Virus record (IMG/VR): IMGVR_UViG_3300032050_000069
Strand: one strand, 5' to 3'
Origin: a virus
Lineage: Duplodnaviria > Heunggongvirae > Uroviricota > Caudoviricetes
Length of the DNA: 64,000 nucleotides
The translations under genes were made by a program, and so were the position numbers. Positions 9,728 through 29,574 of the stretch are shown here, piece by piece. The notes beneath the pieces were generated by a model. It did not search any database. It was not told where the DNA came from and saw only the letters and a list, made by a program, of their open reading frames with translations. The first letter of the stretch is position 1, and every line of letters starts with the position of its first letter.

Positions 9728-10617
9728 TGAGAAAACTAATAATCATATTATCCTTACTTTGTATAACTTTTGTTTCAACCGCACAAATCCAAAAACCGGA
9801 TACATTACAATTATCTCCAAAAGAATTGTTTGGTGAAAGCGATGATTGGAACGATGTGGGTATATTACAATCTTATATTGATTTTTCAAAAGATGTTCTT
9901 TCATCATCAAACCTTTCAGTTGGTATAATTGGAAAGCAGGTATCCACAACTCTTAATTTAGGATATAGTAAATCATCTCTGAATGGTAAGTGGATACATT
10001 CATTCTCAACATCAATAAATCCTATATGGAAATACTACGGTGTTGGTTATGGTTTTAGTAGAAATACCGATAAGAGAACAACTACATTACAAACATTCTA
10101 TTCAACCGATTTTGATTTCCAAAAAGATATTAACTTTTCGTTTATAGATGTATTCAGAACTAAAAAGTGGGGAACATTTGGATATAGCTTAATAGCATCA
10201 AAAACATATTGGGATTCATATCAAGGTGAATGGGAAGGAAAATATACAGTAAATGCAAATGGTGATTTTTTAGATTTGATTTATCCCCAAATGCCAGCAT
10301 CATCCGAAACAACATATAAAGGGATGTTAATGTACACATATACAATTAAAACAAAAAGAGTTAATATATCACCACAAATATTTGCTATGAGTGATGTGTA
10401 TGTAGACTTTAAAGATGGTGAAACTGATTTTGGATATAAAAACGATTTTAATTTAGACCTGTATTATGGAACATCATTTGATTGGAAAATAACTAAAAGG
10501 TTTATATTAAACACCAATATAAGATATAATACAACTTGGGATAAATTAAGTGAATCAGTTGGGTTCAAAAAAAGTAACCCACTATTATTTATGATAGGAA
10601 CAAACTTTCAATTTTAG
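9727..10617 (+). CDS. secreted protein, possible outer-membrane beta-barrel
   Basis: Signal peptide MRKLIIILSLLCITFVSTAQ. Alternating hydrophobic pattern. C-terminal ...MIGTNFQF aromatic end as in OM beta-barrels. Confidence 0.3.
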   Translation: MRKLIIILSLLCITFVSTAQIQKPDTLQLSPKELFGESDDWNDVGILQSYIDFSKDVLSSSNLSVGIIGKQVSTTLNLGYSKSSLNGKWIHSFSTSINPIWKYYGVGYGFSRNTDKRTTTLQTFYSTDFDFQKDINFSFIDVFRTKKWGTFGYSLIASKTYWDSYQGEWEGKYTVNANGDFLDLIYPQMPASSETTYKGMLMYTYTIKTKRVNISPQIFAMSDVYVDFKDGETDFGYKNDFNLDLYYGTSFDWKITKRFILNTNIRYNTTWDKLSESVGFKKSNPLLFMIGTNFQF

Positions 10618-10620
10618 GAT

Positions 10621-10977
10621 ATGAAATGGAGTAAAATTATAATAATGTGTTGTATGGTTTTTATGATTTCTTGTTATAAAGAAGAAATAGAGCCAACTCC
10701 TCAGCCAAAACCTTTGGTAGATATTTTTACATATACTGAAACATCAGTAAATGATGGACAAGAAATTATGTTTAGATTAAATTCAGATAGTTTGTATATA
10801 ATAAAATTAATTGATAAACCAACGAATCAGGTGGTAAGTAAAGAAAAGATTTTTGGTAAAATTGGTGATAATAAAATAAAGATTTACACTAAAACCCTAC
10901 AAAGTAAATATTTATATTTGGTTTTGGAAAATGTTAATAGAAAAGAATTAAAAAAAACAACATTAATACTTAAATAA
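10621..10977 (+). CDS. small lipoprotein with T9SS-CTD-like C-terminal segment
   Basis: Lipobox-like ...MISCYKEE. C-terminal IIKLIDKPTNQVVSKEKIFGKIGDNKIKIYTKTLQSKYLYLVLEN resembles the Por secretion sorting domain pattern. Confidence 0.35.
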   Translation: MKWSKIIIMCCMVFMISCYKEEIEPTPQPKPLVDIFTYTETSVNDGQEIMFRLNSDSLYIIKLIDKPTNQVVSKEKIFGKIGDNKIKIYTKTLQSKYLYLVLENVNRKELKKTTLILK

Positions 10978-10978
10978 A

Positions 10979-11347
10979 ATGAAAAAACTATTTTTAATAG
11001 CAATTGTAACAATAACCTTAACCGGTTGTTTTAAAGAAGATTTGGTTAATCCAATCGTAAATGTTACACCAGATTTAAAAATAGAATCTACTGCTGGTAT
11101 CAAATTAGCATCATCCTTTGTAACCGATGAGGTAAGTATGAATGTAAAATTAGAATCAGCGGGGACTATTAATGTAAAGATTTTAGATATATCTAATAGA
11201 GTAGTATCAAAAGAAACTATGAATGTTAGTGCAGGTGATAATATATTAAAAGTATATACGAGAGCTTTACCATCATCAGCATATAGAATTGCATTATATA
11301 ATAGTAATAATGTATTAATTGGTATAACAGATTTTAACAAACTATAA
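10979..11347 (+). CDS. small lipoprotein with T9SS-CTD-like C-terminal segment (paralog of previous)
   Basis: LTGCFKED lipobox. C-terminal NVKILDISNRVVSKETMNVSAGDNILKVY...YRIALYN matches the T9SS CTD pattern. Confidence 0.35.
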   Translation: MKKLFLIAIVTITLTGCFKEDLVNPIVNVTPDLKIESTAGIKLASSFVTDEVSMNVKLESAGTINVKILDISNRVVSKETMNVSAGDNILKVYTRALPSSAYRIALYNSNNVLIGITDFNKL

Positions 11348-13575: not shown

Positions 13576-14298
13576 ATGAAAAAATTATTCGTATTATTAA
13601 GTTTCTTTTTGTTAAGCAGTGTTGCGGTTGTTGCTCAAACAATAGGAAGCACTAAAACAGAACAATATAAAGCATCCTTTGAAACCGCGATAGATATAGA
13701 AAGATTTTTAGATTATGATGGACCACAAATCCCAATTCAAATTCTAAAAGCCGGTATTAGTGATGAGATGTATGAGATGTATCCTGAATTAAAAGAAAAA
13801 AGGGTAGGTTTGGGTGTTGCTAACATTTCGATGGAATATTTGGAAAACCTTAATCGTTTCAAATTTACCGAAGATAAAACGGAAATTAAGAATAGAATGG
13901 TTAAGCAATTCCAAGCATCGCAAGCTGGCATTTCCGAAAACAAATTAGATGGTAGAGGAAAGATTAACTTAGCAAAATACTTTGTAACAATCGAATGTTA
14001 CGATTATTCGGTATCCGAAGATGAAACTGTAAACCTTAAAGATGGTGTTAAAAACCTTATGGTAACTCGTATCGGTTTGCAAGTTAGATTTACCGATGCA
14101 GAAACAGGTGTAGTATTTGGAGCAAGTGGTTTGGGAGAAGCAAAAACTACTAGAGAATTAACTCTTTTATCAGATGCAACTGTTGATGAAGTTAAATTCA
14201 ATCAATCAACTATATCTATTGCTACTAAAAAAGCATTGGATATTGCGTGTGCTAGAATTTTAGATAGAATGATTAAAAAAGGTATATTCACAAACTAA
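13576..14298 (+). CDS. secreted hypothetical protein (possible periplasmic/OM lysis accessory)
   Basis: Signal peptide MKKLFVLLSFFLLSSVAVVAQ. 240 aa. Position after the lysis genes. Confidence 0.3.
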   Translation: MKKLFVLLSFFLLSSVAVVAQTIGSTKTEQYKASFETAIDIERFLDYDGPQIPIQILKAGISDEMYEMYPELKEKRVGLGVANISMEYLENLNRFKFTEDKTEIKNRMVKQFQASQAGISENKLDGRGKINLAKYFVTIECYDYSVSEDETVNLKDGVKNLMVTRIGLQVRFTDAETGVVFGASGLGEAKTTRELTLLSDATVDEVKFNQSTISIATKKALDIACARILDRMIKKGIFTN

Positions 14299-15035: not shown

Positions 15036-15584
15036 ATGATACGATTAAAAGATATACTTTCAGAAGTAGATAAGCGATTTGAGATACCACAAAATAAGTG
15101 GACTCCAATAATGCGTTCAGAACTACCCCGTTTCAAAAGAATTATATTTGATTTGATTTCAACTGCGTATCAACCAATTGGAGGACACTCTAATGTGAAA
15201 GATAAAGAAGACCTACCGGATGAGGGTGATTTCTTTGATGTGATAGATGTAGATGGTGATGATGAGATAGATGCAGCTACAATAGCAAAATATAAACCAG
15301 CCGGTAAGAAGTTTGTTGCATTGGGACATGATGGTTCTTCGGCAGGTAAATCGGCAGCAGTAAATCATCAGGTAGATAAATTAAAGAGTGGTGGATACTA
15401 TGTAGAAGTATCCGGTAAAATGAGAGATATATTTATGGGTAAAGGATTGGTGCCTGTTACCGATGAAGATGTTGTTCGCAAGGCCTTAAAAGGAAAAGAA
15501 CTTAAATGGAACGGAGATGGTTCATACGATAGAAAAATCGGTGGAACTATACACACTAAAATGATGTTTGGAAAACCAAGATGA
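15036..15584 (+). CDS. MIRLKDIL-family protein, paralog 3
   Basis: ATG at 15036 directly after the upstream TAG. N-terminus MIRLKDILSEV. ORF-track start 15000 is an upstream in-frame extension. Confidence 0.4.
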   Translation: MIRLKDILSEVDKRFEIPQNKWTPIMRSELPRFKRIIFDLISTAYQPIGGHSNVKDKEDLPDEGDFFDVIDVDGDDEIDAATIAKYKPAGKKFVALGHDGSSAGKSAAVNHQVDKLKSGGYYVEVSGKMRDIFMGKGLVPVTDEDVVRKALKGKELKWNGDGSYDRKIGGTIHTKMMFGKPR

Positions 15585-16150
15585 TAAAATTAGGTAACAT
15601 ATTAAACGAAGGTGTACGAAATCCCGCTAATATAAAAGCGTATTATGAGGCATTGTGTAAAAACGAAAAAGTAACTCCTTTGCCTGTAAAGTTTGGAAAT
15701 GTTGGTAAGGGTGGAGCAGCATTAACGTTCAATCCCAAAACAATGAAACCCCTTTACATTTCATTTGATGTAAATAGAATGATGGATCCTGAGCAAGCGG
15801 TTATACATGAATTGACACATCAGATAAAATTAGAAACTGAAAAGGATGCTTATATTGGAAAGAGAGACCAAACTGCTAAATTTAAGAAATTAGAAAATCG
15901 TTTGTTTGAAAAATATGCATATTCGAAATTTTCTAGCATTCTTTGGAAAGAAAGTAAAGCAATAGATGAAAAGTTATCAGTAGCAGGTTCAGCAGCAAGA
16001 AATATAATTAATACTATATTACCTAAAACAACTTTCGCTAAGGGAGATGAGAAATCACAATCAGACCATCAGAAAATGATTAATGATTTGGTGAAAATTC
16101 TTAATAATTTTTATAAGAAATATAACATAGATAAAACAATAGATTTATAA
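15581..16150 (+). CDS. MIKLGNIL-family protein, paralog 4, with HExxH motif
   Basis: ATGA overlap. N-terminus MIKLGNILNEG. Internal VIHELTHQI (HExxH). Confidence 0.4.
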   Translation: MIKLGNILNEGVRNPANIKAYYEALCKNEKVTPLPVKFGNVGKGGAALTFNPKTMKPLYISFDVNRMMDPEQAVIHELTHQIKLETEKDAYIGKRDQTAKFKKLENRLFEKYAYSKFSSILWKESKAIDEKLSVAGSAARNIINTILPKTTFAKGDEKSQSDHQKMINDLVKILNNFYKKYNIDKTIDL

Positions 16151-16231
16151 TTTCTTAATAATTTGATAATATAAAATTAGGTATAAACACAAAATCGATT
16201 CATAATTATTGGGGAACTAACTTGATAATTT

Positions 16232-18709
16232 ATGAATCGTTTCTTTTTATTGTTGTTACTATTGCCAAATTTATTATTTTCGCAGGTAACAATCAAAGGT
16301 GTTACAAAATCCAAATCGGAAACACTTTATTTCTCCCACATTTCTTTTAAAAACCCAAATAGTGATGTTTTTACAACAATTTCAGACACCGAAGGAAAAT
16401 ACTCTATTGTATTAAAAGAAGGTAAGTATCAAATCAAATCTTCATTCGTTGGATATAAGGAATATACAAATGAGGTGGTGTTTGATAGAGATACTGAATT
16501 TGATATATTATTTCCAGATGATGCCAAACAATTATCCGAAGTTGTCGTAAGAAGTGTTTCTCAAAAGGTAACGGAAGCGGCAGTAGTAAGAACAATACGA
16601 AATAGTAATGTAGTATCGGATGGGTTATCAATTGATTTTATTAAAAAAACACCCGATAGAAATGTGGGCGATGCACTTAAAAGAGTAAGTGGGGTTACGA
16701 TACAAAACGATAAGTTTGTATTAGTAAGAGGATTAGCGGATAGATATAATTCAGCTCTACTTAACAAAACCCAACTACCATCAACCGAACCTGATAGAAG
16801 AGCATTTTCATTTGATATAATACCAACATCTCTAATAGATAACATCATAGTTTCTAAATCAGCATCAGCAAATCAACCAGGCGATTGGGCAGGTGGATTA
16901 GTCCAAATAACTACAAAAGAAGTATCTGATAACTTTTTTAATATATCTTTGGGAAGTGGTTGGGGTTCGGTTTCAACTTTGAGAGATTTCAAGTTAGTTC
17001 AACCTACCGATTTCCCCTCCACATTCCCTTCCACTTACAAATACCGAATAAGTAGTAATGGTGATAAAAGAGCTTACACTAAACTACTTACCAATCCCTC
17101 TACCGATGAATTACAATCTATTCCAAACTTAAATGGTGGATTATCATTTGGATATACAAAAGGTAAATGGAATTCATTATTTAGTTCCACAATACGAAAT
17201 GGATTTACAATAAATAATATTGATAGAAAAGATTATCAATCATCAAGTGAATTGGCGTATAATTACAAAGATGTTTTATTTACAAAAAGATTTTCCACAA
17301 ATGGTTTATTTAATTTCACTTATTTAGGTGAAAATCGATATAGTTGGAAAACATTAGTGAACTACCAAAAGGATGATACATACTTAACCCGTAATGGTGA
17401 TAACTTTGATAATGTTCAGAATGTTTTATCTACTGCATCAAATCACATTAATAATTTAGTAATTAGTTCTCAATTTGATGGTAAAATCGAAACATTAGAT
17501 TTCAATTTAGGATACACATACACTTTTAGAGAGCAACCTGATTATCGAATAAACCCAATTACAAAATCATTAGGAGTAAACGAACCATACCAAACTGCAT
17601 GGAGAGATACCTATCGTTTTTGGAGTGTGATGGATGAGAACTCTTTTAATGGTAATATAAACAAACAAATAGGAGATATAAAAATAGGTGGTGGCTATCT
17701 AAAAAGAATTAGAGGATTTAATGCTAGAATATTCCGTAATCTATCGACTGATATGTTAGATGAGATTACAAACAACACCGATAGATACACAGCCGATTTT
17801 GATTTGGGTTCTCTTTATACAATGTATGATACTGAATTTGGTAAATGGAAACTAAACACCGGATTAAGAGGTGAGTATAACCTATTCAATGTATCAACCG
17901 CAGATTTTAGTGGTCAAAAGGTAAATGTAGATAGAAAATATTTGGATATATTACCATCGCTAAATCTTTCATACAACGAAGAAAAAACAAAGTATAGATT
18001 TTCATTAAGTAAAACATTAGCAAGACCGGAGTTTAGAGAAGTAGCTAATTTTGCTTATTATGATTTCGTTAGAAACGCACAAATATTAGGAAACTCAAAG
18101 TTAGAAAAATCTGACATATATAATGTAGACCTTAAATACGAATGGTATCCAAAGGTGGGTGAGAACATTTCACTTTCTCTATTTGGTAAGAACTTTATCA
18201 AACCAATTGAACAAATCGTAGCAGATGGTTCAGTTCCATCAAACTTATTATTGACTTATACAAACCCTAATTCAGCTATCCTATATGGTGTTGAATTGGA
18301 AGTTCGTAAAAAAATAAACGATTGGTTTGATTTTTACACAAACGCTTCGGTAATGAATTCAGAAGTAGAAGTGAATGGTGTGAAAAGACAATTGCAGGGA
18401 CAATCAAACTATGTGTTAAATAGTGGAGTAAACATTCATAAAAAGAAAAATACTATTAACATAACTTACAATAGAGTTGGCGATAGAATTTCAGCAGTAG
18501 GGTTTCAGGGTTACCCAAACATCTTTGAAAATAGTAGAGATGTATTAGATTTAACCTTTTTACATAAACTTCCAAAAGGAGAAATAAAACTGGCAATAGG
18601 TGATGTATTTGCGCAACCATCGATTTATTACCAAAAGTTACAAAACCGAAATCTAATAAAAACAAACAACGAACAAACAATTTCTTTAACATTAAATTTG
18701 AATTTATGA
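16232..18709 (+). CDS. TonB-dependent receptor-like outer-membrane protein (SusC/RagA-like) with N-terminal carboxypeptidase-regulatory-like domain
   Basis: Signal peptide. ...GVTKSKSETLYFSHISF...TDTEGKYSI matches CarbopepD_reg-like. ...DRNVGDALKRVSGVTIQ...VRGLADRYNSALLNKTQLP is the TonB plug signature. 825 aa. Confidence 0.55.
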   Translation: MNRFFLLLLLLPNLLFSQVTIKGVTKSKSETLYFSHISFKNPNSDVFTTISDTEGKYSIVLKEGKYQIKSSFVGYKEYTNEVVFDRDTEFDILFPDDAKQLSEVVVRSVSQKVTEAAVVRTIRNSNVVSDGLSIDFIKKTPDRNVGDALKRVSGVTIQNDKFVLVRGLADRYNSALLNKTQLPSTEPDRRAFSFDIIPTSLIDNIIVSKSASANQPGDWAGGLVQITTKEVSDNFFNISLGSGWGSVSTLRDFKLVQPTDFPSTFPSTYKYRISSNGDKRAYTKLLTNPSTDELQSIPNLNGGLSFGYTKGKWNSLFSSTIRNGFTINNIDRKDYQSSSELAYNYKDVLFTKRFSTNGLFNFTYLGENRYSWKTLVNYQKDDTYLTRNGDNFDNVQNVLSTASNHINNLVISSQFDGKIETLDFNLGYTYTFREQPDYRINPITKSLGVNEPYQTAWRDTYRFWSVMDENSFNGNINKQIGDIKIGGGYLKRIRGFNARIFRNLSTDMLDEITNNTDRYTADFDLGSLYTMYDTEFGKWKLNTGLRGEYNLFNVSTADFSGQKVNVDRKYLDILPSLNLSYNEEKTKYRFSLSKTLARPEFREVANFAYYDFVRNAQILGNSKLEKSDIYNVDLKYEWYPKVGENISLSLFGKNFIKPIEQIVADGSVPSNLLLTYTNPNSAILYGVELEVRKKINDWFDFYTNASVMNSEVEVNGVKRQLQGQSNYVLNSGVNIHKKKNTINITYNRVGDRISAVGFQGYPNIFENSRDVLDLTFLHKLPKGEIKLAIGDVFAQPSIYYQKLQNRNLIKTNNEQTISLTLNLNL

Positions 18710-19908
18710 AAAAACTATTAGTAGCTATTTTAGCATTTGGATTATTAAGTTGCGAAAAAGAATTAGGTGGAGAAGATGGACCTATTAACATCCCAACTTC
18801 AACAACACTTTCAGGCAACATCAACGCAACAACAACTTTAACTGCGGATAAAGTTTGGACATTAAAAGGATATGTGTATGTAACCGATGGTGCAAAACTT
18901 ATCATTCAACCTGGTACAACAATCGTATCTGATATTGCTGAAAAGGGAGCATTGTGTATCGAAAGAGGAGCACAAATAATTGCGGAAGGAACTGCAACAA
19001 AACCAATTGTATTTACATCAGGTAGAGCAAATGGTGAAAAGGCACCTGGAGATTGGGGTGGTATTGTAATATTGGGTAGAGCAAAAACCAATAGAACATC
19101 AGAACCAACAATAGAAGGTGGTATTGGTAGACCTTATGGGGGAACAAACGATTTAGATAATAGTGGTGTTCTTCGTTTTGTAAGAATAGAATATGCTGGT
19201 ATTGCAGCAATGCCGAATTCAGAAATCAACGCACTAACATTAGGTGGTGTTGGTAGCGGAACAATTATTGAAAATGTTCAAACAATTTATGCTAACGATG
19301 ATGCATTTGAATTCTTTGGTGGAACTGTATCACCCAAAAATCTATACGCATATGCAACCGCAGATGATGACTATGATTTTGATTTTGGATATACTGGCAC
19401 CGTATTAAATAGTGTAGCAAAGAGAGACCCACAATTTGTAGATAATGGTGATGCTGGAAATGGAGTGGAGTGTGATAATGATGGAACAGGTTCTCCTGCG
19501 CAACCTTTTACACACCCTAAATTGAATGGTATGATACTAATCGGACCATTTGATGTGGCATCTTTGACAAATCATAATTTAGGGTTAAGATGGAGAAGAG
19601 CGACACAATTTACAATTACTAATTCAAAGGTATTGGGTTATCAAAAGGGTTCATTCTCTATTGAAAGTAATGAAACGGCAACTGCATACAAAGATGGGAT
19701 TTCGAAGTTCTTAAACAACGAAATTCAGGCATTTGACCCATTATTAAATTTCAAATCTACATCAACACTTTTCACCGCAGCTCAAATGAAAGAGAAAGCA
19801 TTGGGTGAGGGAAATGTGGAAAAGAACTACACAAAAGCGGAATTAGAAACACTTTCTAAACCTATATGGAGTAATGGATGGACTAGATTCCCATCGAAAG
19901 GTAATTAA
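18706..19908 (+). CDS. lipoprotein, partner of the TonB-dependent-receptor-like gene
   Basis: ATGA overlap with the upstream gene. Lipobox LLSCEKE. 400 aa. Confidence 0.35.
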   Translation: MKKLLVAILAFGLLSCEKELGGEDGPINIPTSTTLSGNINATTTLTADKVWTLKGYVYVTDGAKLIIQPGTTIVSDIAEKGALCIERGAQIIAEGTATKPIVFTSGRANGEKAPGDWGGIVILGRAKTNRTSEPTIEGGIGRPYGGTNDLDNSGVLRFVRIEYAGIAAMPNSEINALTLGGVGSGTIIENVQTIYANDDAFEFFGGTVSPKNLYAYATADDDYDFDFGYTGTVLNSVAKRDPQFVDNGDAGNGVECDNDGTGSPAQPFTHPKLNGMILIGPFDVASLTNHNLGLRWRRATQFTITNSKVLGYQKGSFSIESNETATAYKDGISKFLNNEIQAFDPLLNFKSTSTLFTAAQMKEKALGEGNVEKNYTKAELETLSKPIWSNGWTRFPSKGN

Positions 19909-19926
19909 TAATTTAATAATGAAATA

Positions 19927-19955
19927 ACCCTCACTTAAAAGTGGGGGTTTATTAT
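19927..19955 (+). terminator. rho-independent terminator
   Basis: accctcac-ttaaaa-gtgggggt hairpin plus T-run. Confidence 0.55.
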
Positions 19956-19963
19956 TTATATCT

Positions 19964-20659
19964 ATGAAAGATTTACTAACTATTGTAATCCCTTGTAAAA
20001 ACGAAAAAGATAACATTTATGAATGTATTTCATTTATTGCAAAGCAAGTTGGAAGTGCAGGACTTAAAGTTATTATTGCAGATACTTCCGATGAGGGAGA
20101 TAGTTTAGATTTTATTGAATATACGAAAAGAGACTACCGATATTCATTAGATATTGAACTAATTGAAGGTGGATTTCCTGCAAAAGCCCGTTTAGAGGCT
20201 AGTAAATTAGTAACCACTCCTTACATACTATTTTTGGATGCTGATATAATGTTAAGAGATAAATCTGTTTTGAAAAAATGTTTAGAGTATAATACGGATT
20301 TAGTTACTGTTCCATTTCAAACTGAAACGGGATTTAATTGGATATTTAGGTTATTCGATATTCAACAAAGATTGAGTAATTGGTTGGGCACTCCATTTGC
20401 AGTTGGTGGATTTCAATTGTGGAAAACCGAAGCATATTGGAAGACCGGTGGATATGATGAAACACATTTATTCGCAGAAGATTATTGGGTTTCACAAAAA
20501 GTAGATGTAATGAAAATACACAAAACAAAAGGTGTATGGACATCTGCAAGAAGATTTAGGAATAAAGGATTTTTTTATATGTTTTGGTTGAGTATTAAAT
20601 GTTACTTTAATAGAAACAATTCTGAATTTTTTAAACAACATCACAATTATTGGAATTAA
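19964..20659 (+). CDS. family-2 (GT-A fold) glycosyltransferase
   Basis: N-terminal LTIVIPCKNEKDNI is a typical GT2 start. DAD-like LFLDADIML (DxD). Confidence 0.5.
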   Translation: MKDLLTIVIPCKNEKDNIYECISFIAKQVGSAGLKVIIADTSDEGDSLDFIEYTKRDYRYSLDIELIEGGFPAKARLEASKLVTTPYILFLDADIMLRDKSVLKKCLEYNTDLVTVPFQTETGFNWIFRLFDIQQRLSNWLGTPFAVGGFQLWKTEAYWKTGGYDETHLFAEDYWVSQKVDVMKIHKTKGVWTSARRFRNKGFFYMFWLSIKCYFNRNNSEFFKQHHNYWN

Positions 20660-20758: not shown

Positions 20759-21481
20759 ATGAATTATCAGGCTATTATAGTATCAGATTTACATTTAGGA
20801 ACTAAAGATTCTAAAGCAGAAGAATTTATAGAATTTTTGGAAACACATCCAACTGATTTACTAATTCTTAATGGAGATATAGTCGATGGGTGGGCTTTGA
20901 ATAGAGGAACTAAATGGAAAAAACAACATACTAAAGTTATATCTAAATTATTACAATTATCAAATACAACCAGAATTATCTGGATAAGGGGGAATCATGA
21001 CGAATTTATACAAGAATTTATCGGAACACATTTGGGTTCGATTGAAATTAGAGAAGATTATAAGTTGGACATCAATAATACTATGGAGAGTTACTATATT
21101 TTCCACGGAGATGTTATTGATGTTTTTATAACCAAATACAAATGGTTATCAAAGATAGGTGCGGTAGGATATGATTTTGCACTTTGGTTAAATAGAGTAT
21201 ATAATTCATATCGTAAATGGAGAAAGTTACCCTATATATCCATATCCCAAAAAATTAAAGAAAGTGTTAAGGTGGCAACAAATTATGTAAACGATTTTGA
21301 AGTTACCGCATTGAGCATGGCCACTAAAAAAGGGTGTAATGGAGTTATTTGTGGGCATATCCATCAACCAGCTGATAGAATGATTGCTGGAAAACGATAT
21401 TTTAATAGTGGGGATTGGATTGAAAATATGAGTGCTATTTGTATAAATAATGCCGGAAAGGTATATTTATATCAAAGATAA
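20759..21481 (+). CDS. calcineurin-like metallophosphoesterase
   Basis: IIVSDLHLG, LNGDIVDGW, RGNHDE, CGHIHQP are the ordered metallophosphatase motifs. Confidence 0.6.
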   Translation: MNYQAIIVSDLHLGTKDSKAEEFIEFLETHPTDLLILNGDIVDGWALNRGTKWKKQHTKVISKLLQLSNTTRIIWIRGNHDEFIQEFIGTHLGSIEIREDYKLDINNTMESYYIFHGDVIDVFITKYKWLSKIGAVGYDFALWLNRVYNSYRKWRKLPYISISQKIKESVKVATNYVNDFEVTALSMATKKGCNGVICGHIHQPADRMIAGKRYFNSGDWIENMSAICINNAGKVYLYQR

Positions 21482-21485
21482 CACT

Positions 21486-22319
21486 ATGAAAAATTTAATT
21501 ATATTATTGTGTTTAGTTCCAAGTTTAACTTTTTCACAAGTTAGTAATTGGAGAAGTAATCCACCACAACCACAAAGAAGTACACCATCAGTACAACAAT
21601 CAATTCCACAAAGAAACGATGTTAGTAGTTGGAGAAACGAATCACCTAGAGAGTATAATAGACCGAACAGAACAAGACCTGGTTCTAATATTATTATTAG
21701 AGACCCATATTGGGGTATGAACAATTGGGGTTGGGGTTGGAATAGATGGGATATGTGGGGTGCACCTGCATTTGGTTGGAACTTTTGGCAACCATCTTGG
21801 TATTGGAACGATTGGGGATACCGTCAACCACAAAGAATTTATGTTTATGATGATGGTAAAAGAGATACCATTAGAGGTAAAAAACCTGTAATTAGTTTTG
21901 GTATTCAGAAAACAACTGATAAACAAATTGGAGGATTTTTTACAATAGGAAATAAGGGATACTTTATAATGGAATACAATTCAAGTGTTGAAAGAGATAA
22001 TTCAACATTCTTCCCATATGGTAATATAACACAAATTGATTTTCCATTGGTAAATGATTTAGTTCAACGAAATAGTTTTTACATCGGTGCAGGTAAAAGA
22101 ATAAAGAGAACGGGTATTCACTTTATGGTTGGAACTGTTTCTGAAGATGTGAAATGGAGAGGTAGAGATGATTTGGGATACATTACTTTTCCAAAATATT
22201 TAGATAGATTTACTACATTCAAAATAGGTGGGTTACATGATTATAAAAATTTCACAATAAAGGGTGATTATGACCCTATAATTAATACCGGAACTTTTGG
22301 TTTTGGTGTGAATTTCTAA
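21486..22319 (+). CDS. secreted Trp-rich low-complexity protein with C-terminal beta-barrel-like segment
   Basis: Signal peptide MKNLIILLCLVPSLTFSQ. WGMNNWGWGWNRWDMWGAPAFGWNFWQPSWYWNDWGY block. C-terminus ...FGFGVNF. Confidence 0.35.
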   Translation: MKNLIILLCLVPSLTFSQVSNWRSNPPQPQRSTPSVQQSIPQRNDVSSWRNESPREYNRPNRTRPGSNIIIRDPYWGMNNWGWGWNRWDMWGAPAFGWNFWQPSWYWNDWGYRQPQRIYVYDDGKRDTIRGKKPVISFGIQKTTDKQIGGFFTIGNKGYFIMEYNSSVERDNSTFFPYGNITQIDFPLVNDLVQRNSFYIGAGKRIKRTGIHFMVGTVSEDVKWRGRDDLGYITFPKYLDRFTTFKIGGLHDYKNFTIKGDYDPIINTGTFGFGVNF

Positions 22320-23750
22320 ATGAAAAAATGGATACTACCTTTACTGATAATTGTTATATGTCTATTCGCTGAAAATGCGATTGGGCAGACTTATACACAA
22401 ACTTATATCGATAAATGTACCGGCGAGGTTAAGGTTGCAACTACAACTTTTATTAATGGTAATGCAGTAGTTTCTTTTTATAATGAAGTAAGAAGTTTTT
22501 CACCATTTGAAGTTCAGAGTGGAGCTACACAAGTTTGGATTAAAGCCATACAATTAAAATACCAACAAATGGGATGCCCAACTGCTGTTGTAGTTCAACA
22601 AACAGTTCAGCAAGCCGTTTCACAAGCAGCATCACAGGCTGCAAGTGCCGCAGCTTCACAGGCGGCAAGTTCAGCGGCCTCATCAGCGGCGAGTAGTGCT
22701 GCTAGTGGTGCAGCAAGTTCTGCGGCATCATCATCAGCGAGTTCTGCTGCAAGTTCTTCGGCTTCAACCGCCGCGAGTTCATCTGCATCAACTCCACCAC
22801 CCACATCATCTTCAACATCATCTACACCGCCTGCAAGTTCATCTTCGAGCAGTAATAGTTCATCATCTTCATCATCGAGTAGTAGTTCATCTTCATCATC
22901 AGAAACCAAAACTGAAACGAAGGCAGAAACTAAATCAGAAACAAAGAGTGAATCTAAAACCGAAGAGAAGAAAACTGAAACTAAAAGTGAGGAAAAGAAA
23001 GAGGAGAGCAAATCTGAAAGCAAAGAAGAAAAAAAGGAAGAATCTAAATCCGAAGAAAAGAAAGAAGAGAAAAAGGAAACAAAAAAGCAACAAAATCTAA
23101 ACCCACTATTAGTAGCTTCTGATTTAACGGTGGCAGATGATCAGGAAGGTAAATTTACAACCATTGCATCAGTAGGTGTTTCTAAATCATCTCTAATGGG
23201 TGATAAATCTTATAGTGCTAACCTAATGGTGTGGAGCACTCTTAATCAATTTGCACTTACTACCGGAACTACAAAGATGGATTTTAAAGATGGTAAGTTA
23301 AATTCAATCAGTTCGTATTCTTCTACCGGTGCGTATCTTAAAGGTAATTGGATGGGTTTATTGGGATACACTTGGATTAAACCACACCCTAAATGGGGAA
23401 CATATGGATATAATGTTGGTGCGATAGTATTGTTGTTAAAAAATGCTGAAAACAAATTCACAACATCTCTATCAACATCAGCAGTTGTATTTTGGACAAA
23501 ACCTTATTCATTCAGCAAAAAACTTACACTATCTCCACAAGTATTTATTATGAATTCCCCTATAAATTATGATACTTATAATGGAACTACTTTAGTAAAT
23601 AGACATTTTGGTGGATTAGTTGGAACATCTTTTGATTATAGAATAAGTAAAAGATTTGGATTTAGTGCAAACTACAAATTAAATGTGAATACTATGGGGG
23701 GTATTAAGGCTACCCATATGTTTATGATAGGAAGCCGAATGATACTTTAG
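22320..23750 (+). CDS. secreted protein with long S/A-rich and K/E/T-rich low-complexity linkers and a C-terminal beta-barrel-like domain
   Basis: Signal peptide. SAAS repeats and ETKTETKAETKSETKSE repeats. C-terminal ~250 aa with alternating pattern ending ...FMIGSRMIL (compare 9727 ORF ...FMIGTNFQF). Confidence 0.35.
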   Translation: MKKWILPLLIIVICLFAENAIGQTYTQTYIDKCTGEVKVATTTFINGNAVVSFYNEVRSFSPFEVQSGATQVWIKAIQLKYQQMGCPTAVVVQQTVQQAVSQAASQAASAAASQAASSAASSAASSAASGAASSAASSSASSAASSSASTAASSSASTPPPTSSSTSSTPPASSSSSSNSSSSSSSSSSSSSSSETKTETKAETKSETKSESKTEEKKTETKSEEKKEESKSESKEEKKEESKSEEKKEEKKETKKQQNLNPLLVASDLTVADDQEGKFTTIASVGVSKSSLMGDKSYSANLMVWSTLNQFALTTGTTKMDFKDGKLNSISSYSSTGAYLKGNWMGLLGYTWIKPHPKWGTYGYNVGAIVLLLKNAENKFTTSLSTSAVVFWTKPYSFSKKLTLSPQVFIMNSPINYDTYNGTTLVNRHFGGLVGTSFDYRISKRFGFSANYKLNVNTMGGIKATHMFMIGSRMIL

Positions 23751-26069: not shown

Positions 26070-26154
26070 TTGATTTTCAATATAAAAGTTTTTTAGAAAA
26101 AGCTTGTTTTTTTCGATTATTTTTCATAATTTAGACGTATAAAGTTTGAGAGTT

Positions 26155-28221
26155 ATGAAAAAATACAACAACTACCACTCCTCCTTCTGGTTAGAGGAAC
26201 ATGATTTTGATGAGGATATCGTTTTCTCATCCCTTTCCGAACAAAGTGTAGATACTATTAAAAAATATCGTTTATCTTCTGCTCGTAAGGCCATCTCCAA
26301 TTTCGTTTCAATTGCTACTGGAAAAAACATTCCGGTCACATTTGCTACTAACAACTCCTATACCGATGGTAAATCGGTTGTTATTAGTGGTGACATTGAT
26401 AAGGCAGAGAAATTTGACATTGGTGTTGGTTTGGCATTGCATGAGGGTTCTCACATTCTTCTTTCGGATTTTGAATTACTTCGAAATTTGGATTCTAAAA
26501 TTCCAACTTCGTTGTTTGAATTGGCGGCTACTAAAAATTTAGGTAGATACCAAGTGATTGATATGGTGAAGAATTTAGGTAACATTGTAGAAGATAGAAG
26601 AATTGACAACTATATCTACAAAAATGCACCTGGATATAGAGAGTATTACCTTAAACTTTACGAACATTACTTTGGTGATAAGGCCATCGAAAAGGGTTTG
26701 GAAAGTGATGATTTCAAAAAAGAGAATTGTGAATCATATATGTTTAGGTTGATTAACCTAATGAATAAAAAATCAGATTTGACTTCTCTTAAAGGTTTAA
26801 AAGAGATTTGGAAACTATTGGATTTGAAAAACATAGATAGATTAAAAAACTCTATCGATACACATAATGTGGCCTTAGAAATCGCTAGCGTAATCTTTAC
26901 AAACATCGATGTGGTTGAGAATCAAAATAATAATCAATCTGCCGGACAGGGTGAGCCTGATGAGCAGGGTGAGGGTAATCAACAAGATGGTGATGCTGGG
27001 GATATGAAAGGTGATGAAAATGAAACACCCTCTTCAAATGGGCCTTCAATGAGTTCTGACGCTGATGGTGGTAATAGTATGAGTGAATCTTCCGAAGGTG
27101 AATCTTCCGAAGGTGAATCCGATTCTAATGAAGGAAAATCATCTAATTCACTTTCAGATAGTGCTTTGAAGAAACTTAATAGAATCATCAAACAACAAAA
27201 AGAGTTTTTAGATGGTGATGTTAAGAAAAAGAAAATCACTAAAACATTAGAGAATGAGATTACTTCGGTTGAATCGCAGGGTGCTGAGATTGTGCATGTT
27301 GGTGAGGGACTTCATAACTCCAAAGGTTGTGATGTAATCGTTCTTAAAAACCTTACCAAAAAAATGCTTGAAGATGATTCTTTCGGTATGGCATACGCAT
27401 ATCAAGATTGGAAGACAGGTAAAAAGAGTTTAAATCAAGTAATCAAATCTGATGATTTTTCAAAGGCAGAGATGATGGGAACCGTAATGGGTAAAAAATT
27501 GCAGGTTCGTAACGAATCCCGTAACACCATCTTTAATCGCCAGAAAAATGGTAAGATTGATGGTAGAATGATTGCTACTTTGGGATTCGATAATGAAAAT
27601 GTTTTCTCACAAACATTTGTTGATAAGTTTAAGAAAGCTAACATTCACCTTTCTATCGATGCTAGTGGCTCAATGGGAGGTAGAAAATGGAGAGAAACGA
27701 TGATTAACGCAATTGCACTCGCAAAGGCTACCTCAATGATTTCGAATTTAGAATTACAAATTACATTTAGGTATTCAGATAATGATTTGCCGGTAATTGT
27801 ATTCGCTTACGATAGTAGAAAAGATTCATTTCAGAAAATCAAAAGTATCTTCCCTTATCTTAAAGAGTGTGGGACTACGCCAGAGGGATTGACATTCGAA
27901 GCAATCCAAAAGATGTTAGTTCCGGCATCAAACGATGTGGATTCATTCTTTGTAAATATATCAGATGGTGAACCTACCTTTGGTAATAGAAACATTCAGT
28001 ATGGTGGAATGGCAGCCTGTGAGCACACTAAGAAGCAGGTTAATAAGATTAAAGCAAATGGTATTGGAGTTCTTTCTTACTTCGTTTCAGATAACGATTA
28101 CTACTCCGAAGGTTCTAAAACTAAGTTTAAAACGATGTATGGGGCTGATGCGAGGTTTATTAACATCAACTCAATCGGTGAAGTAACCACCACGCTAAAT
28201 AAAATGTTCCTTTCTAAATAA
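26155..28221 (+). CDS. VWA-domain protein with acidic central region (CobT / MoxR-partner-like)
   Basis: Acidic S/E/G-rich low-complexity middle. C-terminal IHLSIDASGSMGG is a MIDAS DxSxS motif. Conserved leader gtttgagagtt-ATG shared with the next gene. Confidence 0.55.
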   Translation: MKKYNNYHSSFWLEEHDFDEDIVFSSLSEQSVDTIKKYRLSSARKAISNFVSIATGKNIPVTFATNNSYTDGKSVVISGDIDKAEKFDIGVGLALHEGSHILLSDFELLRNLDSKIPTSLFELAATKNLGRYQVIDMVKNLGNIVEDRRIDNYIYKNAPGYREYYLKLYEHYFGDKAIEKGLESDDFKKENCESYMFRLINLMNKKSDLTSLKGLKEIWKLLDLKNIDRLKNSIDTHNVALEIASVIFTNIDVVENQNNNQSAGQGEPDEQGEGNQQDGDAGDMKGDENETPSSNGPSMSSDADGGNSMSESSEGESSEGESDSNEGKSSNSLSDSALKKLNRIIKQQKEFLDGDVKKKKITKTLENEITSVESQGAEIVHVGEGLHNSKGCDVIVLKNLTKKMLEDDSFGMAYAYQDWKTGKKSLNQVIKSDDFSKAEMMGTVMGKKLQVRNESRNTIFNRQKNGKIDGRMIATLGFDNENVFSQTFVDKFKKANIHLSIDASGSMGGRKWRETMINAIALAKATSMISNLELQITFRYSDNDLPVIVFAYDSRKDSFQKIKSIFPYLKECGTTPEGLTFEAIQKMLVPASNDVDSFFVNISDGEPTFGNRNIQYGGMAACEHTKKQVNKIKANGIGVLSYFVSDNDYYSEGSKTKFKTMYGADARFININSIGEVTTTLNKMFLSK

Positions 28222-28314
28222 TTGATTATCAACGGCTATAAACCGTTGATTCTCAATAAGAAAATTTTCAAAATAATTGATAAATTGCTTGGAAAATTCA
28301 GAATTATTTCGTAG

Positions 28315-28328
28315 TTTTACTATGTAAT
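28315..28328 (+). promoter_or_regulatory. class-II upstream motif TTTACTATGTAAT (with CTTGGAAAATTC element about 25 nt upstream)
   Basis: Same composite motif precedes genes at 50544, 51331, 61583. Confidence 0.4.
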
Positions 28329-28359
28329 CAGTTTGAGAGTTAAAAACAAAAATAGAGTT

Positions 28360-29574
28360 ATGAAAAAATCACAAAAAGTTTATGAGGCAGGTTTCACTAA
28401 TGAAATCTACAAAATCGAAAAAGTTGGAAATCGATACCTTTTGGTAAATACCGAAGGTGAATACTCCAATACATTTGTTGGCTCGGTAATGAGACGTGAA
28501 GCAGGTGAAAATGGTAAAGCAATTAGAGGCTATGTAAATTCAAAGGGTAGTAATTCTTTTAGAATGGTTGAGATGGCCGAATACAATATGCTTGTTAAAC
28601 CATTAAAAGAAAATGGTGAGGTGAACATTGAGGCCACAAGTGAGCACTCTGAATTACTTCGTATTATCCACGAGGATTCAATCAAATTAAAACCTGATAA
28701 TCTAATTATCAAGGATATAAAATGGAAATACCTTATTCGTTCTGCCGTTAGAGGTAAGAACATTATGATGACAGGGCCGGCGGGTTGTGGTAAAACTATG
28801 GCGGCTAAATTCTTAGTTACCCAATTACAACGACCTGATTTTTACTTCAACTTAGGTTCAACGCAAGACCCGCGAGCAACTTTGGTTGGTAATACCCAAT
28901 TCAATAAAGAGACAGGAACTTACTTCTCTGAATCGGCTTTCGTTAAGGCAATTAAAACTCCTAACGCAATTATCCTTTTGGATGAGTTAAGTAGAGCTCA
29001 CCCTGATGCTTGGAACATTTTGATGACAGTATTAGACCAAAACCAACGATACCTTCGTTTGGATGAGGCAGAGGGTTCACCGATTGTAAAGGTGGCAGAA
29101 GGTGTTACTTTCATCGCTACCGCAAACATCGGTAATGAATACACCGCGACTAGGGTATTGGATAGAGCTATCTTAGACCGTTTTGTTACAATTGAAATGG
29201 ATGTGTTGAATAGTGAAGAAGAATTCACACTACTTAAAAAGATGTATCCTGAGGTGAGTGATGATGACCTTAAAGCGATTGGTGAGATTGCTCACAACAC
29301 AAGAGAGGTGAGCCGTTCAGAGGTTGCTAAGTTGAGTAATATGGTTTCAACGAGAGCATCGGTAGAAATGGCAGGATTACTTTACGATGGATTCTCCCTT
29401 ATGGAGGCCGCAGAGGTTGCTATCTTACCTTTCTTCTCTAATGATGGAGGATTGGAAAGTGAGAGAACTTATGTGAAGCAGTTGGTTCAGAAATACATCA
29501 AAACAACTGACCAAAATCTTTTCAATGAAATGAAAGATGAGAAGGTAGAAAATGAAGAAACTATTGTGTGGTAA
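28360..29574 (+). CDS. MoxR-type AAA+ ATPase (CobS-like)
   Basis: Walker A IMMTGPAGCGKT. Walker B AIILLDELSRAHP. Sensor/arginine region ATANIGNEY...RFV. ATG at 28360 follows the conserved leader. Confidence 0.65.
   Translation: MKKSQKVYEAGFTNEIYKIEKVGNRYLLVNTEGEYSNTFVGSVMRREAGENGKAIRGYVNSKGSNSFRMVEMAEYNMLVKPLKENGEVNIEATSEHSELLRIIHEDSIKLKPDNLIIKDIKWKYLIRSAVRGKNIMMTGPAGCGKTMAAKFLVTQLQRPDFYFNLGSTQDPRATLVGNTQFNKETGTYFSESAFVKAIKTPNAIILLDELSRAHPDAWNILMTVLDQNQRYLRLDEAEGSPIVKVAEGVTFIATANIGNEYTATRVLDRAILDRFVTIEMDVLNSEEEFTLLKKMYPEVSDDDLKAIGEIAHNTREVSRSEVAKLSNMVSTRASVEMAGLLYDGFSLMEAAEVAILPFFSNDGGLESERTYVKQLVQKYIKTTDQNLFNEMKDEKVENEETIVW

Follow-up and report, generated by a model that had tools for sequence, protein, structure and literature searches.

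Two overlapping genes on a 64,000-nucleotide stretch of tailed-phage DNA (IMG/VR record IMGVR_UViG_3300032050_000069, here called the window) probably form a self-contained phosphorus-acquisition cassette, consisting of a promoter region, a transporter gene, a lipoprotein gene and a terminator, whose ancestry is common with the phosphate-starvation regulon of a Bacteroidota host. This host is a freshwater bacterium, most likely Aquirufa or a close relative, and the phages that carry the cassette form a freshwater family with very large members. Both ORFs (825 and 400 aa) lie at the coordinates given earlier. The cassette and its downstream neighbors comprise the following features:

16145..16177, + strand: phased direct repeats TTATAATTTCT / TAATAATTTGA / TAATATAAAAT with an 11-bp period
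16206..16221, + strand: conserved leader or promoter-proximal element TTATTGGGGAACTAAC, shortly 5' of the start codon
16232..18709, + strand: TonB-dependent transporter, 825 aa (Pfam, NCBIfam, AlphaFold2, Foldseek, homologue names, dN/dS)
18706..19908, + strand: surface lipoprotein and putative transporter 'lid', 400 aa (lipobox LLSC, Cys16; right-handed parallel beta-helix)
19926..19959, + strand: intrinsic-terminator-like hairpin with a 10-bp stem, 5 G-C pairs and a T-rich tail (consensus scan and sequence)
19964..20659, + strand: family-2 glycosyltransferase, 231 aa (Pfam Glycos_transf_2, 6.4e-13; weak Glyco_transf_21)
20759..21481, + strand: metallophosphoesterase of the LpxH/PlcP-like superfamily, 240 aa (Pfam Metallophos and Metallophos_2)

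The window is very probably jumbo-phage genome

An earlier note on this DNA had assumed a phage context, and its gene content and layout very probably mark the window as part of a jumbo-phage genome. All 99 kept ORFs lie on one strand, alongside a 22-tRNA array and an endolysin gene, and the 84 window ORFs scanned matched 57 PHROG families versus 34 Pfam families, with several PHROG families without known function matching at E <1e-30. The examined DNA also encodes a dUTPase, HNH endonucleases and a PHA02142-type RNA ligase, and other window genes have relatives in huge phages, crAss-like or Lak phages. Relatives are encoded on 122 IMG/VR stretches, on contigs that cluster at ~230-330 kb and reach 326 kb.

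If the window were instead cellular DNA misclassified as viral, from a chromosome, a plasmid or a reduced symbiont, the pair would simply be a host gene pair. Such an origin is favored by the cell-like GroEL/GroES, IscU/IscA and tRNA genes, and by the gene content of the 64-kb window and the examined 10-kb flanks, which revealed no gene for a capsid, portal or terminase. We consider it quite unlikely, given the single-strand layout, the excess of PHROG over Pfam matches, the phage-type enzymes and the IMG/VR relatives. In addition, no ribosomal-protein or evident housekeeping family appears among the Pfam matches listed, and the GC content is 0.32 in the window versus 0.39-0.45 in Aquirufa.

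The pair encodes a TonB-dependent transporter and a beta-helix lipoprotein

On sequence and predicted structure, the 825-aa protein is a TonB-dependent transporter, with the signal peptide, carboxypeptidase-regulatory-like domain and plug that had been proposed for it. Pfam placed CarbopepD_reg_2 (PF13715) at residues 25-106, Plug (PF07715) at 132-221 (E 5.7e-8, over the gathering score) and OMP_b-brl_3 (PF14905) at 414-822 (E 2.6e-26); the plug blocks quoted earlier correspond to residues 142-158 and 165-183. The signal peptide MNRFFLLLLLLPNLLFS (residues 1-17, with Q following) precedes a CarboxypepD_reg beta-sandwich at ~18-94, a plug at ~115-228 and a predicted barrel at ~229-825. The AlphaFold2 model (pLDDT 81, pTM 0.75) shows a mixed alpha/beta domain at residues 115-228, the plug region, and DSSP assigns ~23 long strand segments beyond residue 229. 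In a Foldseek search of the PDB, the model resembled PhuR, FepA, Cir and BtuB (E 1e-24 to 1e-20), with target-normalised TM scores of 0.6-0.74 against solved TonB-dependent transporters and ~720-850 columns aligned to 22-strand transporters, the sequence identity in the top matches being just 10-13%; XusA and BtuB3 were also among the matches. Homologues carry the database name TonB-dependent receptor.

The search for a TonB box near the N-terminus, which the earlier note had suggested, yielded a putative one, LSEVVVRS, at residues 101-108 (nt 16532-16555), N-terminal to the plug. Its L-x-E-V-V-V pattern is conserved among 69 transporter homologues, V104 is conserved in 68/69 of the aligned sequences, and the linker that holds it has pLDDT <50 at residues 99-111. 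The protein ends in ...LNLNL, with Leu as the last residue in all phage variants; the Aquirufa transporter ends in ...NYNF. Outer-membrane barrels usually end in an aromatic residue, a typical rather than strictly defining trait.

The label 'SusC-type' did not survive closer comparison. NCBIfam models, scanned with an E-value limit of 0.01, gave no SusC/RagA signature (TIGR04056) for the transporter, the lone match being to TIGR01782, the TonB-Xanth-Caul subfamily to which sugar transporters belong, at a sub-threshold 177 bits versus a cut-off of 310. The predicted structure is closer to classical TonB-dependent transporters than to SusC, whose chain 8a9y_A came after them at rank 45 (TM 0.47-0.50).

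The second gene overlaps the first by ATGA and encodes the lipoprotein that had been expected there, with the N-terminus MKKLLVAILAFGLLSC-EKELGGED. Strongly acidic stretches follow the Cys in the cellular lipoprotein homologues, and acidic residues in this position fit surface export in Bacteroidota (Price & Arkin). Structure prediction confidently gives a pectin-lyase-like right-handed beta-helix. A Pfam scan of the lipoprotein found no family, neither SusD domains (e.g. PF07980, PF14322) nor PF28492, a precomputed family on the cellular lipoprotein homologues whose model the scanned library may lack. The earlier suggestion of a SusD-like partner is ruled out by the beta-helix fold, which is not alpha-helical and TPR-like, and by the missing SusD Pfam domain.

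The possibility that the fold is re-used in the virion was also raised earlier. As virion or lysis components, the lipoprotein would act as a depolymerase resembling a tailspike, and the barrel protein would be structural or membrane-disrupting. This is extremely improbable, with export signals on both proteins (a lipobox signal peptide on the lipoprotein, a Sec signal peptide on the transporter), no PHROG match for either, and 64-72% identity to chromosomal Aquirufa genes that lie in phosphate loci and have an upstream motif in common with the phage pair. The N-terminal lipoprotein signal, the cellular lipoproteins as nearest relatives and an identity to tailspikes of ~10% argue against a tailspike or depolymerase identity for the lipoprotein.

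Cellular homologues of the pair lie among phosphate genes

The closest cellular homologues are from freshwater Aquirufa, at 64% identity (63-65%) for the transporter and 72% (69-74%) for the lipoprotein, and Chitinophagales and Sphingobacteriales carry the adjacent pair too (transporter 32-41%, lipoprotein 51-65%). In every cellular locus whose DNA extends far enough upstream, the lipoprotein adjoins the transporter. Across 80 cellular loci, the neighbors were PHO4/PiT (32 loci), PhoU_div (30), Porin_O_P-like (27) and metallophosphoesterase (23) genes, together with PhoBR-like regulators (histidine kinase 20, OmpR-type regulator 17); genes that on inspection look like those for polyphosphate kinase and exopolyphosphatase occurred in 6-7 of the 80.

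In the window, a generic metallophosphoesterase is the sole phosphate-related gene near the pair. It is 35-44% identical to the enzyme found a few kb from the pair in the 23 cellular loci, and its match to the LpxH model of NCBIfam is under the cut-off. Neither PhoH nor PstS is among the Pfam matches listed for the window (25 of 34 families). The hairpin at 19926..19959 appears from its sequence to close the two-gene unit. The glycosyltransferase gene beyond it is a separate transcription unit, weakly linked to the pair but possibly related through glycolipid synthesis. It was found in just 7/80 phage loci; in Aquirufa avitistagni, the gene for the homologous metallophosphoesterase adjoins a glycosyltransferase gene.

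The pair resembles a known phosphate-starvation module

On architecture and gene context, the pair appears to match the family of Fjoh_0545/0546, BT4055/4056 and CC0171/ElpS, the named proteins being compared by description only. In Flavobacterium johnsoniae, Fjoh_0545 has three Pfam domains, PF13715, PF07715 and PF14905, the same set as the window transporter, and sits in a phoBR operon ('PUSIV') with Fjoh_0546, a pectin-lyase-fold lipoprotein without a Pfam domain (PMC8115612). Depletion of phosphate strongly induces both genes, and the locus shows no response to nitrogen or iron limitation (PMC8115612). The window lipoprotein is like Fjoh_0546 in its pectin-lyase-like beta-helix and, as far as the Pfam copies used go, in lacking a Pfam domain, and the surroundings of the cellular homologues are as in Fjoh_0545/0546 (phoBR-like genes, an OprP-like porin, a glycosyltransferase and PiT). 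BT4055/BT4056 of B. thetaiotaomicron has been proposed to act as transporter and lid, with conservation across 621 genera and a relationship to ElpS (bioRxiv 10.1101/2023.03.17.533168). ElpS of Caulobacter crescentus is phosphate starvation-induced and its gene adjoins one for a TonB-dependent receptor; ElpS raised phosphatase activity only in an indirect way, and CC0171 was described as constitutive (PMC2996285). By fold, architecture, gene context and published descriptions, the window lipoprotein matches the ElpS / Fjoh_0546 (FII) / BT4056 type. The window pair differs from these systems in being phage-borne and in a barrel that ends in Leu, and its transporter is compact: it has 825 aa, those of most Bacteroidota have ~920-960 aa, and Aquirufa alone has the same trait. 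The match to a phosphate-starvation module did not figure in the earlier interpretation.

Since the pair matches this module, its likely substrate is a phosphorus source rather than a carbohydrate. Uptake of carbohydrate in SusC/SusD fashion, in which the lipoprotein binds or cuts a glycan and the transporter imports the oligosaccharides, has several points in its favor: beta-helix folds are typical of polysaccharide lyases and hydrolases, Lidbury et al. noted a similarity to polygalacturonase in modelling (PMC8115612), the sub-threshold TonB-Xanth-Caul match is the sole one in NCBIfam, and carbohydrate uptake was proposed for megaphage transporters by Michniewski et al. 2021 (PMC9723777). It is nevertheless improbable, with neither a SusC/RagA signature nor a SusD domain in the pair, homologues that are induced by phosphate depletion and, among the recurrent neighbor families of the 80 cellular loci (scanned or by eye), phosphate genes and no evident carbohydrate-degrading enzyme. 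A phosphorylated glycan substrate would reconcile the phosphorus and carbohydrate readings.

Uptake of iron or another metal chelate, the default annotation in some sources, would fit the siderophore and haem transporters at the top of the structural matches, the Fe-S assembly genes in the window and some JGI names ('outer membrane receptor for ferrienterochelin' or 'Fe transport'). However, these names are generic and the structural matches reflect a common fold. The F. johnsoniae locus answers to phosphate and not iron depletion, and the recurrent neighbors in the 80 cellular loci are phosphate genes, with none seen that relates to siderophores. A role in metal-chelate uptake is very unlikely.

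Several other systems share part of this arrangement. Like SusC/SusD and the phosphate-inducible PusC/PusD, the window pair has a transporter that bears a CarboxypepD_reg domain at its N-terminus, and the next gene encodes a surface lipoprotein, the presumed lid; unlike them, it has no SusC/RagA signature and its lipoprotein is an all-beta helix instead of the alpha-helical SusD fold. BtuB-BtuG and XusA-XusB of Bacteroides likewise combine a non-SusC transporter with a substrate-capturing surface lipoprotein cap, but their substrates are vitamin B12 and siderophores and the folds of the BtuG and XusB lids are unrelated to the window beta-helix (Price & Arkin).

Phage and cellular copies have a common upstream motif

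The repeats at 16145..16177 are a putative Pho-box-like regulator site. An exact motif match, TAATAATTTGATAATA, lies at 16156-16171, 76 nt 5' of the transporter ATG, and TAAYA-N6-TAAYA was present in 23/56 unique phage transporter upstream regions (41%), mostly at -74 to -79, compared with 9/1182 upstream regions of other phage ORFs and a mean of 0.8 (maximum 4) in shuffled sequences. Among cells, it occurred upstream of 54/66 transporter homologues, 11/20 metallophosphoesterases, 11/26 phosphate-porin-like genes and 10/35 PiT genes, versus 16/368 of the remaining ORFs. The core of the phased repeats resembles TTTAACA, the PhoP DAP-seq motif of Riemerella anatipestifer (PMC9603813), and the cassette is possibly under host Pho control. 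The TAAYA motif is AT-rich and lies within an AT-rich genome. The second element, TTATTGGGGAACTAAC, is retained, little altered, across many phage variants despite differing upstream genes; the window has one exact copy, and its three matches at <=3 mismatches are no above-chance number.

The cassette is retained under purifying selection

We kept 80 phage loci out of the 122 IMG/VR stretches. The lipoprotein lies directly 3' of the transporter in 71/71 of those whose contig extends far enough, while other neighbors vary, and near-identical (99%) transporter copies occur on 288-kb contigs. The window proteins retain every invariant column of the 61- and 69-sequence family alignments. Among phage variants dN/dS was 0.14 for the transporter and 0.18 for the lipoprotein, indicating purifying selection over whole genes, with surface loops pooled in. 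A clade of jumbo phages has probably carried the cassette for a long time.

Phages classically use TonB-dependent transporters as receptors, and phage T5 blocks its own receptor, FhuA, with a lipoprotein, Llp. The earlier note raised superinfection exclusion or receptor replacement. In this reading, the host transporter-lid pair would be the phage receptor and the ~35% diverged phage copy would let infected cells still import the nutrient yet evade related phages, or keep progeny from being trapped on debris. The greater diversity of the phage copies (62-100% identity, versus 84-98% among Aquirufa copies) would suit such a role. We regard it as unlikely: the dN/dS values are those of ordinary purifying and not diversifying selection, a small protein would suffice for blocking, and the phage transporter is complete, its TonB box and plug conserved, and the Pho-like motif common to phage and cells points to nutrient-responsive control. 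Nutrient uptake during infection, also among the roles first proposed, is the best supported.

Phage transporters of this kind have been mentioned once before: the megaphages Mar_Mega_1 and LR745206 are described as encoding a 'TonB-dependent receptor (SusC)', in passages that mention neither a partner lipoprotein nor a link to phosphate (Michniewski et al. 2021, PMC9723777). In BFVD, a library of viral protein structures, the Mar_Mega_1 transporter was the sole match over the full length (TM 0.8, 21% identity). In LR745206, an unrelated huge phage of 635 kb, both families are adjacent in reversed order, and the beta-helix lipoprotein is 37% identical to that of the window. The transporters of both megaphages are full-length but distant (21-28% identity) from the window transporter, and the window clade is a freshwater lineage, different from and far more numerous than they are.

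A proposed role in phosphorus supply during infection

During infection, host RNA polymerase would transcribe the cassette, and a host PhoB/PhoP-type regulator may act through the phased TAAYA repeats. Using Sec, Bam and lipoprotein export, the host would insert the transporter into the outer membrane and deliver the beta-helix lipoprotein to the cell surface, where the latter would serve as a substrate-capturing lid. Engagement of LSEVVVRS by host TonB-ExbBD would drive import of a putative phosphorus-containing substrate.

The cyanophage phosphate-acquisition genes pstS and phoA are reportedly under host PhoBR control. Like them, the window pair would be a set of phosphorus-acquisition genes of host origin that is retained by phages where phosphorus is limiting, and a putative site for the host Pho regulator lies upstream of it. 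It differs in encoding an outer-membrane transporter and lid and not a periplasmic binding protein or phosphatase, in its Bacteroidota host and in a regulation suggested by a motif.

Since phosphate starvation turns the pair on in bacteria, the phage probably uses its own copy so that the infected cell continues to scavenge phosphorus. In phosphorus-poor lake water, this may benefit phage fitness by keeping up or boosting the phosphorus supply for replication of a ~290 kb genome.

The transporter and its lipoprotein partner

ORF inspection bore out the two genes of the earlier note, at the same coordinates and with the same ATGA overlap. Their features are as follows.

16232-18709, + strand: transporter, 825-aa ORF
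Transporter residues 25-106: CarbopepD_reg_2 (Pfam)
Transporter residues 132-221: Plug (Pfam)
Transporter residues 414-822: OMP_b-brl_3 (Pfam)
18706-19908, + strand: lipoprotein, 400-aa ORF, lipobox Cys16

The transporter has a signal peptide, and the plug blocks quoted earlier lie at residues 142-158 and 165-183. A TonB box, which the earlier note proposed looking for near the N-terminus, is present as a TonB-box-like LSEVVVRS at residues 101-108, with its L-x-E-V-V-V core kept across 69 transporter homologues. An AlphaFold2 model built from a diverse alignment (pLDDT 81, pTM 0.75) begins with a beta-sandwich, followed by a disordered linker that holds the TonB box, a plug and some 23 long strands. 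Foldseek matched this model to the solved TonB-dependent transporters PhuR, FepA, Cir, PfeA, BtuB and XusA (E 1e-24 to 1e-20, target-normalised TM 0.6-0.74). Of the 22-strand barrel and plug anticipated earlier, the plug is predicted, and the fold matches suggest that the barrel closes. A PDB sequence search with both proteins gave no useful match, and PHROG, NCBIfam and Pfam scans placed the lipoprotein, a beta-helix protein, in no family.

Comparison of the phage variants gave dN/dS values of 0.14 (transporter) and 0.18 (lipoprotein), and the window proteins retain all invariant columns of the 61- and 69-sequence family alignments; these are working genes rather than decaying passengers. The transporter ends in Leu (...NLNL) in all phage variants (window 18692-18706; L001-L080, the loci in related phages), an unusual terminal residue for an outer-membrane barrel signal, and the homologues in Aquirufa terminate in Phe (...NYNF).

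The earlier note described the pair as SusC/SusD-like, a label that proved wrong. The transporter has no SusC/RagA match in the NCBIfam scan, where its sole match is to the TonB-Xanth-Caul subfamily and sub-threshold; a SusC chain ranks 45th among the structural matches of its model; and the lipoprotein has no SusD domain in Pfam. The working principle, a transporter with a surface lipoprotein, is the same, and since the SusC/RagA and SusD signatures are absent, the pair resembles SusCD in principle without being a member. We consider glycan uptake improbable.

Cellular relatives often lie among phosphate genes

Searching one genome per prokaryotic species with a lipoprotein alignment as query returned 80 cellular loci, in which the transporter lies directly upstream of the lipoprotein wherever upstream DNA was available. 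We clustered all ORFs of these loci and scanned the representatives. The recurrent neighbours are a PHO4 phosphate transporter (PiT; 32 of 80 loci), PhoU_div (30), a phosphate-porin-like barrel (27), a metallophosphoesterase (23), a histidine kinase (20), an OmpR-type response regulator (17) and a glycosyltransferase (16). In 6-7 of the 80 there are also a putative polyphosphate kinase and exopolyphosphatase, which were identified by eye rather than by scan.

This layout is that of the Flavobacterium johnsoniae phoBR operon, which includes a glycosyltransferase (Fjoh_0541), OprP (Fjoh_0542), PhoRB (Fjoh_0543/0544), a transporter (Fjoh_0545) and the 'FII' lipoprotein Fjoh_0546, whose fold is that of a pectin lyase and which lacks Pfam domains (Lidbury et al., PMC8115612). 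Fjoh_0545 has the same Pfam set as the window transporter (PF07715, PF13715, PF14905), and phosphate depletion strongly induces both Fjoh_0545 and Fjoh_0546 (PMC8115612). In Bacteroides thetaiotaomicron, BT4056 was proposed to be the lid of the non-SusC transporter BT4055; it is 40% identical to Fjoh_0546 and related to Caulobacter ElpS, and pairs of this type are adjacent in 621 genera (Price & Arkin, bioRxiv 10.1101/2023.03.17.533168). ElpS is a phosphate-starvation-induced surface lipoprotein whose gene adjoins a TonB-dependent receptor gene (PMC2996285). We assign the window lipoprotein to the ElpS/Fjoh_0546/BT4056 family by its fold, architecture, adjacency and genomic context, with the named proteins compared by description.

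We therefore hold, with moderate confidence, that the pair represents a phosphate-starvation transporter with its lid, related to that of the host and serving phosphorus acquisition during infection; our confidence in the identity of the two parts is higher than in this function. The earlier suggestion of nutrient uptake during infection was thus right in spirit, though not in its SusC/SusD label. Iron uptake, compatible with a generic TonB-dependent fold, has little to recommend it beside the phosphate genes of the cellular loci. We give receptor replacement, in which the phage transporter would stand in for a host surface receptor, a slim chance.

Distribution in phages and cells

A scan with the transporter found relatives encoded by 122 IMG/VR stretches, from which we kept 80 loci (65-95% identity, contigs up to 326 kb); a large protein database held many further relatives (81-100% identity, contigs up to ~289 kb). 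Of the kept loci, 71 lie on contigs that extend beyond the transporter, and in each of these the lipoprotein comes directly after it; in 37 of the 71 the tblastn matches of the two abut without a gap, as expected if the genes overlap in the same way. The remaining neighbours differ between loci. Two short faecal contigs labelled 'Bacteriophage sp.' that carry the pair were left out of the phage evidence as unverified 5-8 kb fragments. A comparison of 20 kb of window DNA with GenBank phages gave no near-identical match.

The closest cellular copies are in Aquirufa, freshwater Cytophagales (lipoprotein 69-74% and transporter 63-65% identical), followed by Chitinophagales and Sphingobacteriales (51-65% and 32-41%). 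In neighbour-joining trees of both proteins, phages and Aquirufa form an exclusive clade, and they have in common a compact transporter of 825-845 aa, versus ~920-960 aa elsewhere. The hosts of these jumbo phages are probably Aquirufa-like Bacteroidota. Each copy, phage or Aquirufa, matches the base composition of its own genome, which indicates that the transfer between them is old; trees and GC content yielded no direction for it. The Aquirufa copy falls either inside the phage diversity or beside it as its sister; the compact form of the module may therefore have been spread by phages.

Similar transporters have been noted in few phages. Michniewski et al. (PMC9723777) list a 'TonB-dependent receptor (SusC)' for the marine megaphage Mar_Mega_1 and for LR745206, with carbohydrate uptake as the guessed role, a label that the present reading corrects. 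The Mar_Mega_1 protein is the only full-length match to the transporter model in BFVD, a set of viral protein structures (TM 0.8). In the uncultured phage LR745206.1 (634,780 bp), the same two families are adjacent (lipoprotein at 4560-5855, 37% identical to that of the window, E 1e-56; transporter at 5752-8400, 28%), with the lipoprotein directly upstream as in elpS-cc0171 and opposite to the window. LR745206 is unrelated to the window phage, so huge phages of at least two unrelated lineages have acquired the module, which is rare among catalogued phage proteins. Our literature searches found no link between phage transporters and the phosphate regulon, no description of the present freshwater clade, nothing relevant on Aquirufa phages or on phage PlcP or lipid remodelling, and no mention of a TonB-dependent receptor among the papers listed for viral TonB-receptor auxiliary genes linked to phosphate.

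A candidate Pho box and the cassette borders

The region 5' of the transporter gene is conserved across phage variants, including those in which another gene precedes it, and contains direct repeats with an 11-bp period. The elements around the pair in the window are as follows.

16156-16171: repeat match TAATAATTTGATAATA, 76 nt 5' of the transporter ATG
16206-16221: element TTATTGGGGAACTAAC, 11 nt 5' of the transporter start codon
19926-19959: strong terminator-like hairpin, 3' of the lipoprotein gene

Other phage variants read the same repeat as TTAACAATTTCTTAACA. The corresponding pattern, TAAYA-N6-TAAYA (Y = C/T), was counted upstream of phage and cellular genes.

Occurrence of TAAYA-N6-TAAYA, an AT-rich motif within an AT-rich genome
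Upstream of the phage transporter: 23 of 56 unique regions, mostly at -74 to -79
Shuffled phage transporter regions: mean 0.8, maximum 4
Upstream of other phage ORFs: 9 of 1182
Upstream of cellular transporter homologues: 54 of 66
Upstream of cellular metallophosphoesterases: 11 of 20
Upstream of cellular phosphate-porin-like genes: 11 of 26
Upstream of cellular PiT genes: 10 of 35
Upstream of remaining cellular ORFs: 16 of 368

The DAP-seq motif of Riemerella anatipestifer PhoP has the core TTTAACA, and the promoters tested by gel shift in that study include that of a TonB-dependent receptor (PMC9603813). Judged by sequence, the upstream repeats are candidates for a Pho box that the phage has kept. 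The second element, TTATTGGGGAACTAAC, is conserved in many phage variants, has no second exact copy within the window, and could be a promoter element or leader signal. We rejected both upstream motifs as general phage promoters, as neither recurs above chance in the window.

Bounded by conserved upstream elements and a 3' hairpin, the pair looks like a self-contained unit. Directly after the lipoprotein stop codon, TAATAATTTAATAATG (19906-19921) matches TAATAATTTGATAATA at 14 of 16 bases; it could mark where the cassette ends or, in DNA this AT-rich, be a chance resemblance.

Phage context

All 99 kept window ORFs lie on one strand, together with an array of tRNA genes.

57055-61482, + strand: 22-tRNA array covering most amino acids

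An endolysin gene is present, and PHROG matched 57 families among 84 ORFs, including several uncharacterised ones with very low E-values, where Pfam matched only 34. Within 26146-29574 and 31544-32464 lie a CobT/CobS-like pair of a vWA-like protein and an AAA ATPase, closest to the 484-kb uncultured phage LR756508, and an SPFH/Band 7 protein of a kind common to crAss-like and Lak phages of Bacteroidota. The flanks continue on the strand of the window ORFs, with genes for a PHA02142-type RNA ligase, HNH endonucleases and GroES/GroEL. Misclassified cellular DNA would explain why neither the window scan nor both 10-kb flanks contain a capsid, portal or terminase gene; given the other features, we regard the window as phage DNA with high confidence and a cellular origin as quite unlikely. 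The recurrent neighbours in related viral loci include phage-associated accessory genes only and no virion hallmark genes. A virion role of the pair, also raised in the earlier note, seems remote.

Several further features were observed. GroES and GroEL lie at 16356-18284 of locus L163, ~6 kb past the right window end, with the RNA ligase, a UvdE endonuclease and a dTDP-sugar isomerase on the same strand. Just 3' of the cassette are a family-2 glycosyltransferase (19964-20659) and a metallophosphoesterase (20759-21481), which resemble the PlcP/glycosyltransferase lipid-remodelling pair of phosphate starvation. The metallophosphoesterase is 35-44% identical to an enzyme that 23 cellular loci encode close to the transporter-lid pair; in Aquirufa avitistagni the gene of that enzyme adjoins a glycosyltransferase gene. 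The two downstream genes are near the transporter in only 7 of 80 phage loci.

Five ORFs (starts 14304, 14633, ~15036, 15581 and 34044) share a near-identical N-terminal peptide, MI[KR]LK[DN][IL]L.E, four of them consecutive just 5' of the transporter; among the 80 phage loci, three of these four have no homologue and 15581-16150 has one in two loci. Signal-peptide or lipobox ORFs are unusually many and mostly without a family match (5743-11347, 13576-14298, 21450-23750, 44641-45243 and 53165-55028), including 561-, 765- and 296-aa proteins, an FG-GAP lipoprotein and an ORF with a long Ser/Ala/Lys/Glu-rich low-complexity stretch (22320-23750). ORF 44641-45243 (200 aa, signal peptide, DKGH motif) is probably the source of the Pfam Endonuclease_NS match and, if so, would encode a non-specific nuclease for export; 10 other phage loci have a distant relative a few kb away from the transporter. 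NifU/IscU-like and IscA-like Fe-S assembly proteins, a ferredoxin and two radical-SAM-like proteins are encoded among 45243-45964, 2304-2618, 2977-4236 and 37335-38573. The paralogous ORFs 223-1032, 35145-36164, 39683-40705, 41926-43348 and 45964-46836 have putative GDSL/SGNH-hydrolase-like N-terminal motifs (GCSFT, GDSFTWGQGLY), assigned by motif rather than family scan.

Significance

Cyanophage genes that boost host phosphate uptake are well known, and their products are periplasmic or cytoplasmic. The cellular module and the concept of phage phosphorus-acquisition genes are already known. In the mechanism we propose, jumbo phages would keep the transporter and lid as a regulated cassette through which phosphorus is acquired during infection. 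The fuller scenario, which we advance tentatively and at slightly under even chances, is that an abundant freshwater jumbo-phage clade remodels the host outer membrane, installing a TonB-powered phosphorus importer with its lid, and co-opts host PhoB/PhoP through the retained Pho box. If true, the cassette would be the first set of phosphorus-acquisition auxiliary genes to work at the outer membrane, and it would include the first phage gene outside cyanophages wired into the host phosphate-starvation circuit.

The upstream repeats offer a concrete candidate Pho box for Bacteroidota, and the 825-aa transporter is a compact, naturally minimal version of a transporter-lid family of hundreds of bacterial genera. 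An outer-membrane transporter and lid strictly conserved on more than 100 lake jumbo-phage contigs would take the nutrient-uptake concept to the cell surface and to Bacteroidota, and would imply infections long enough to make and insert new outer-membrane proteins.
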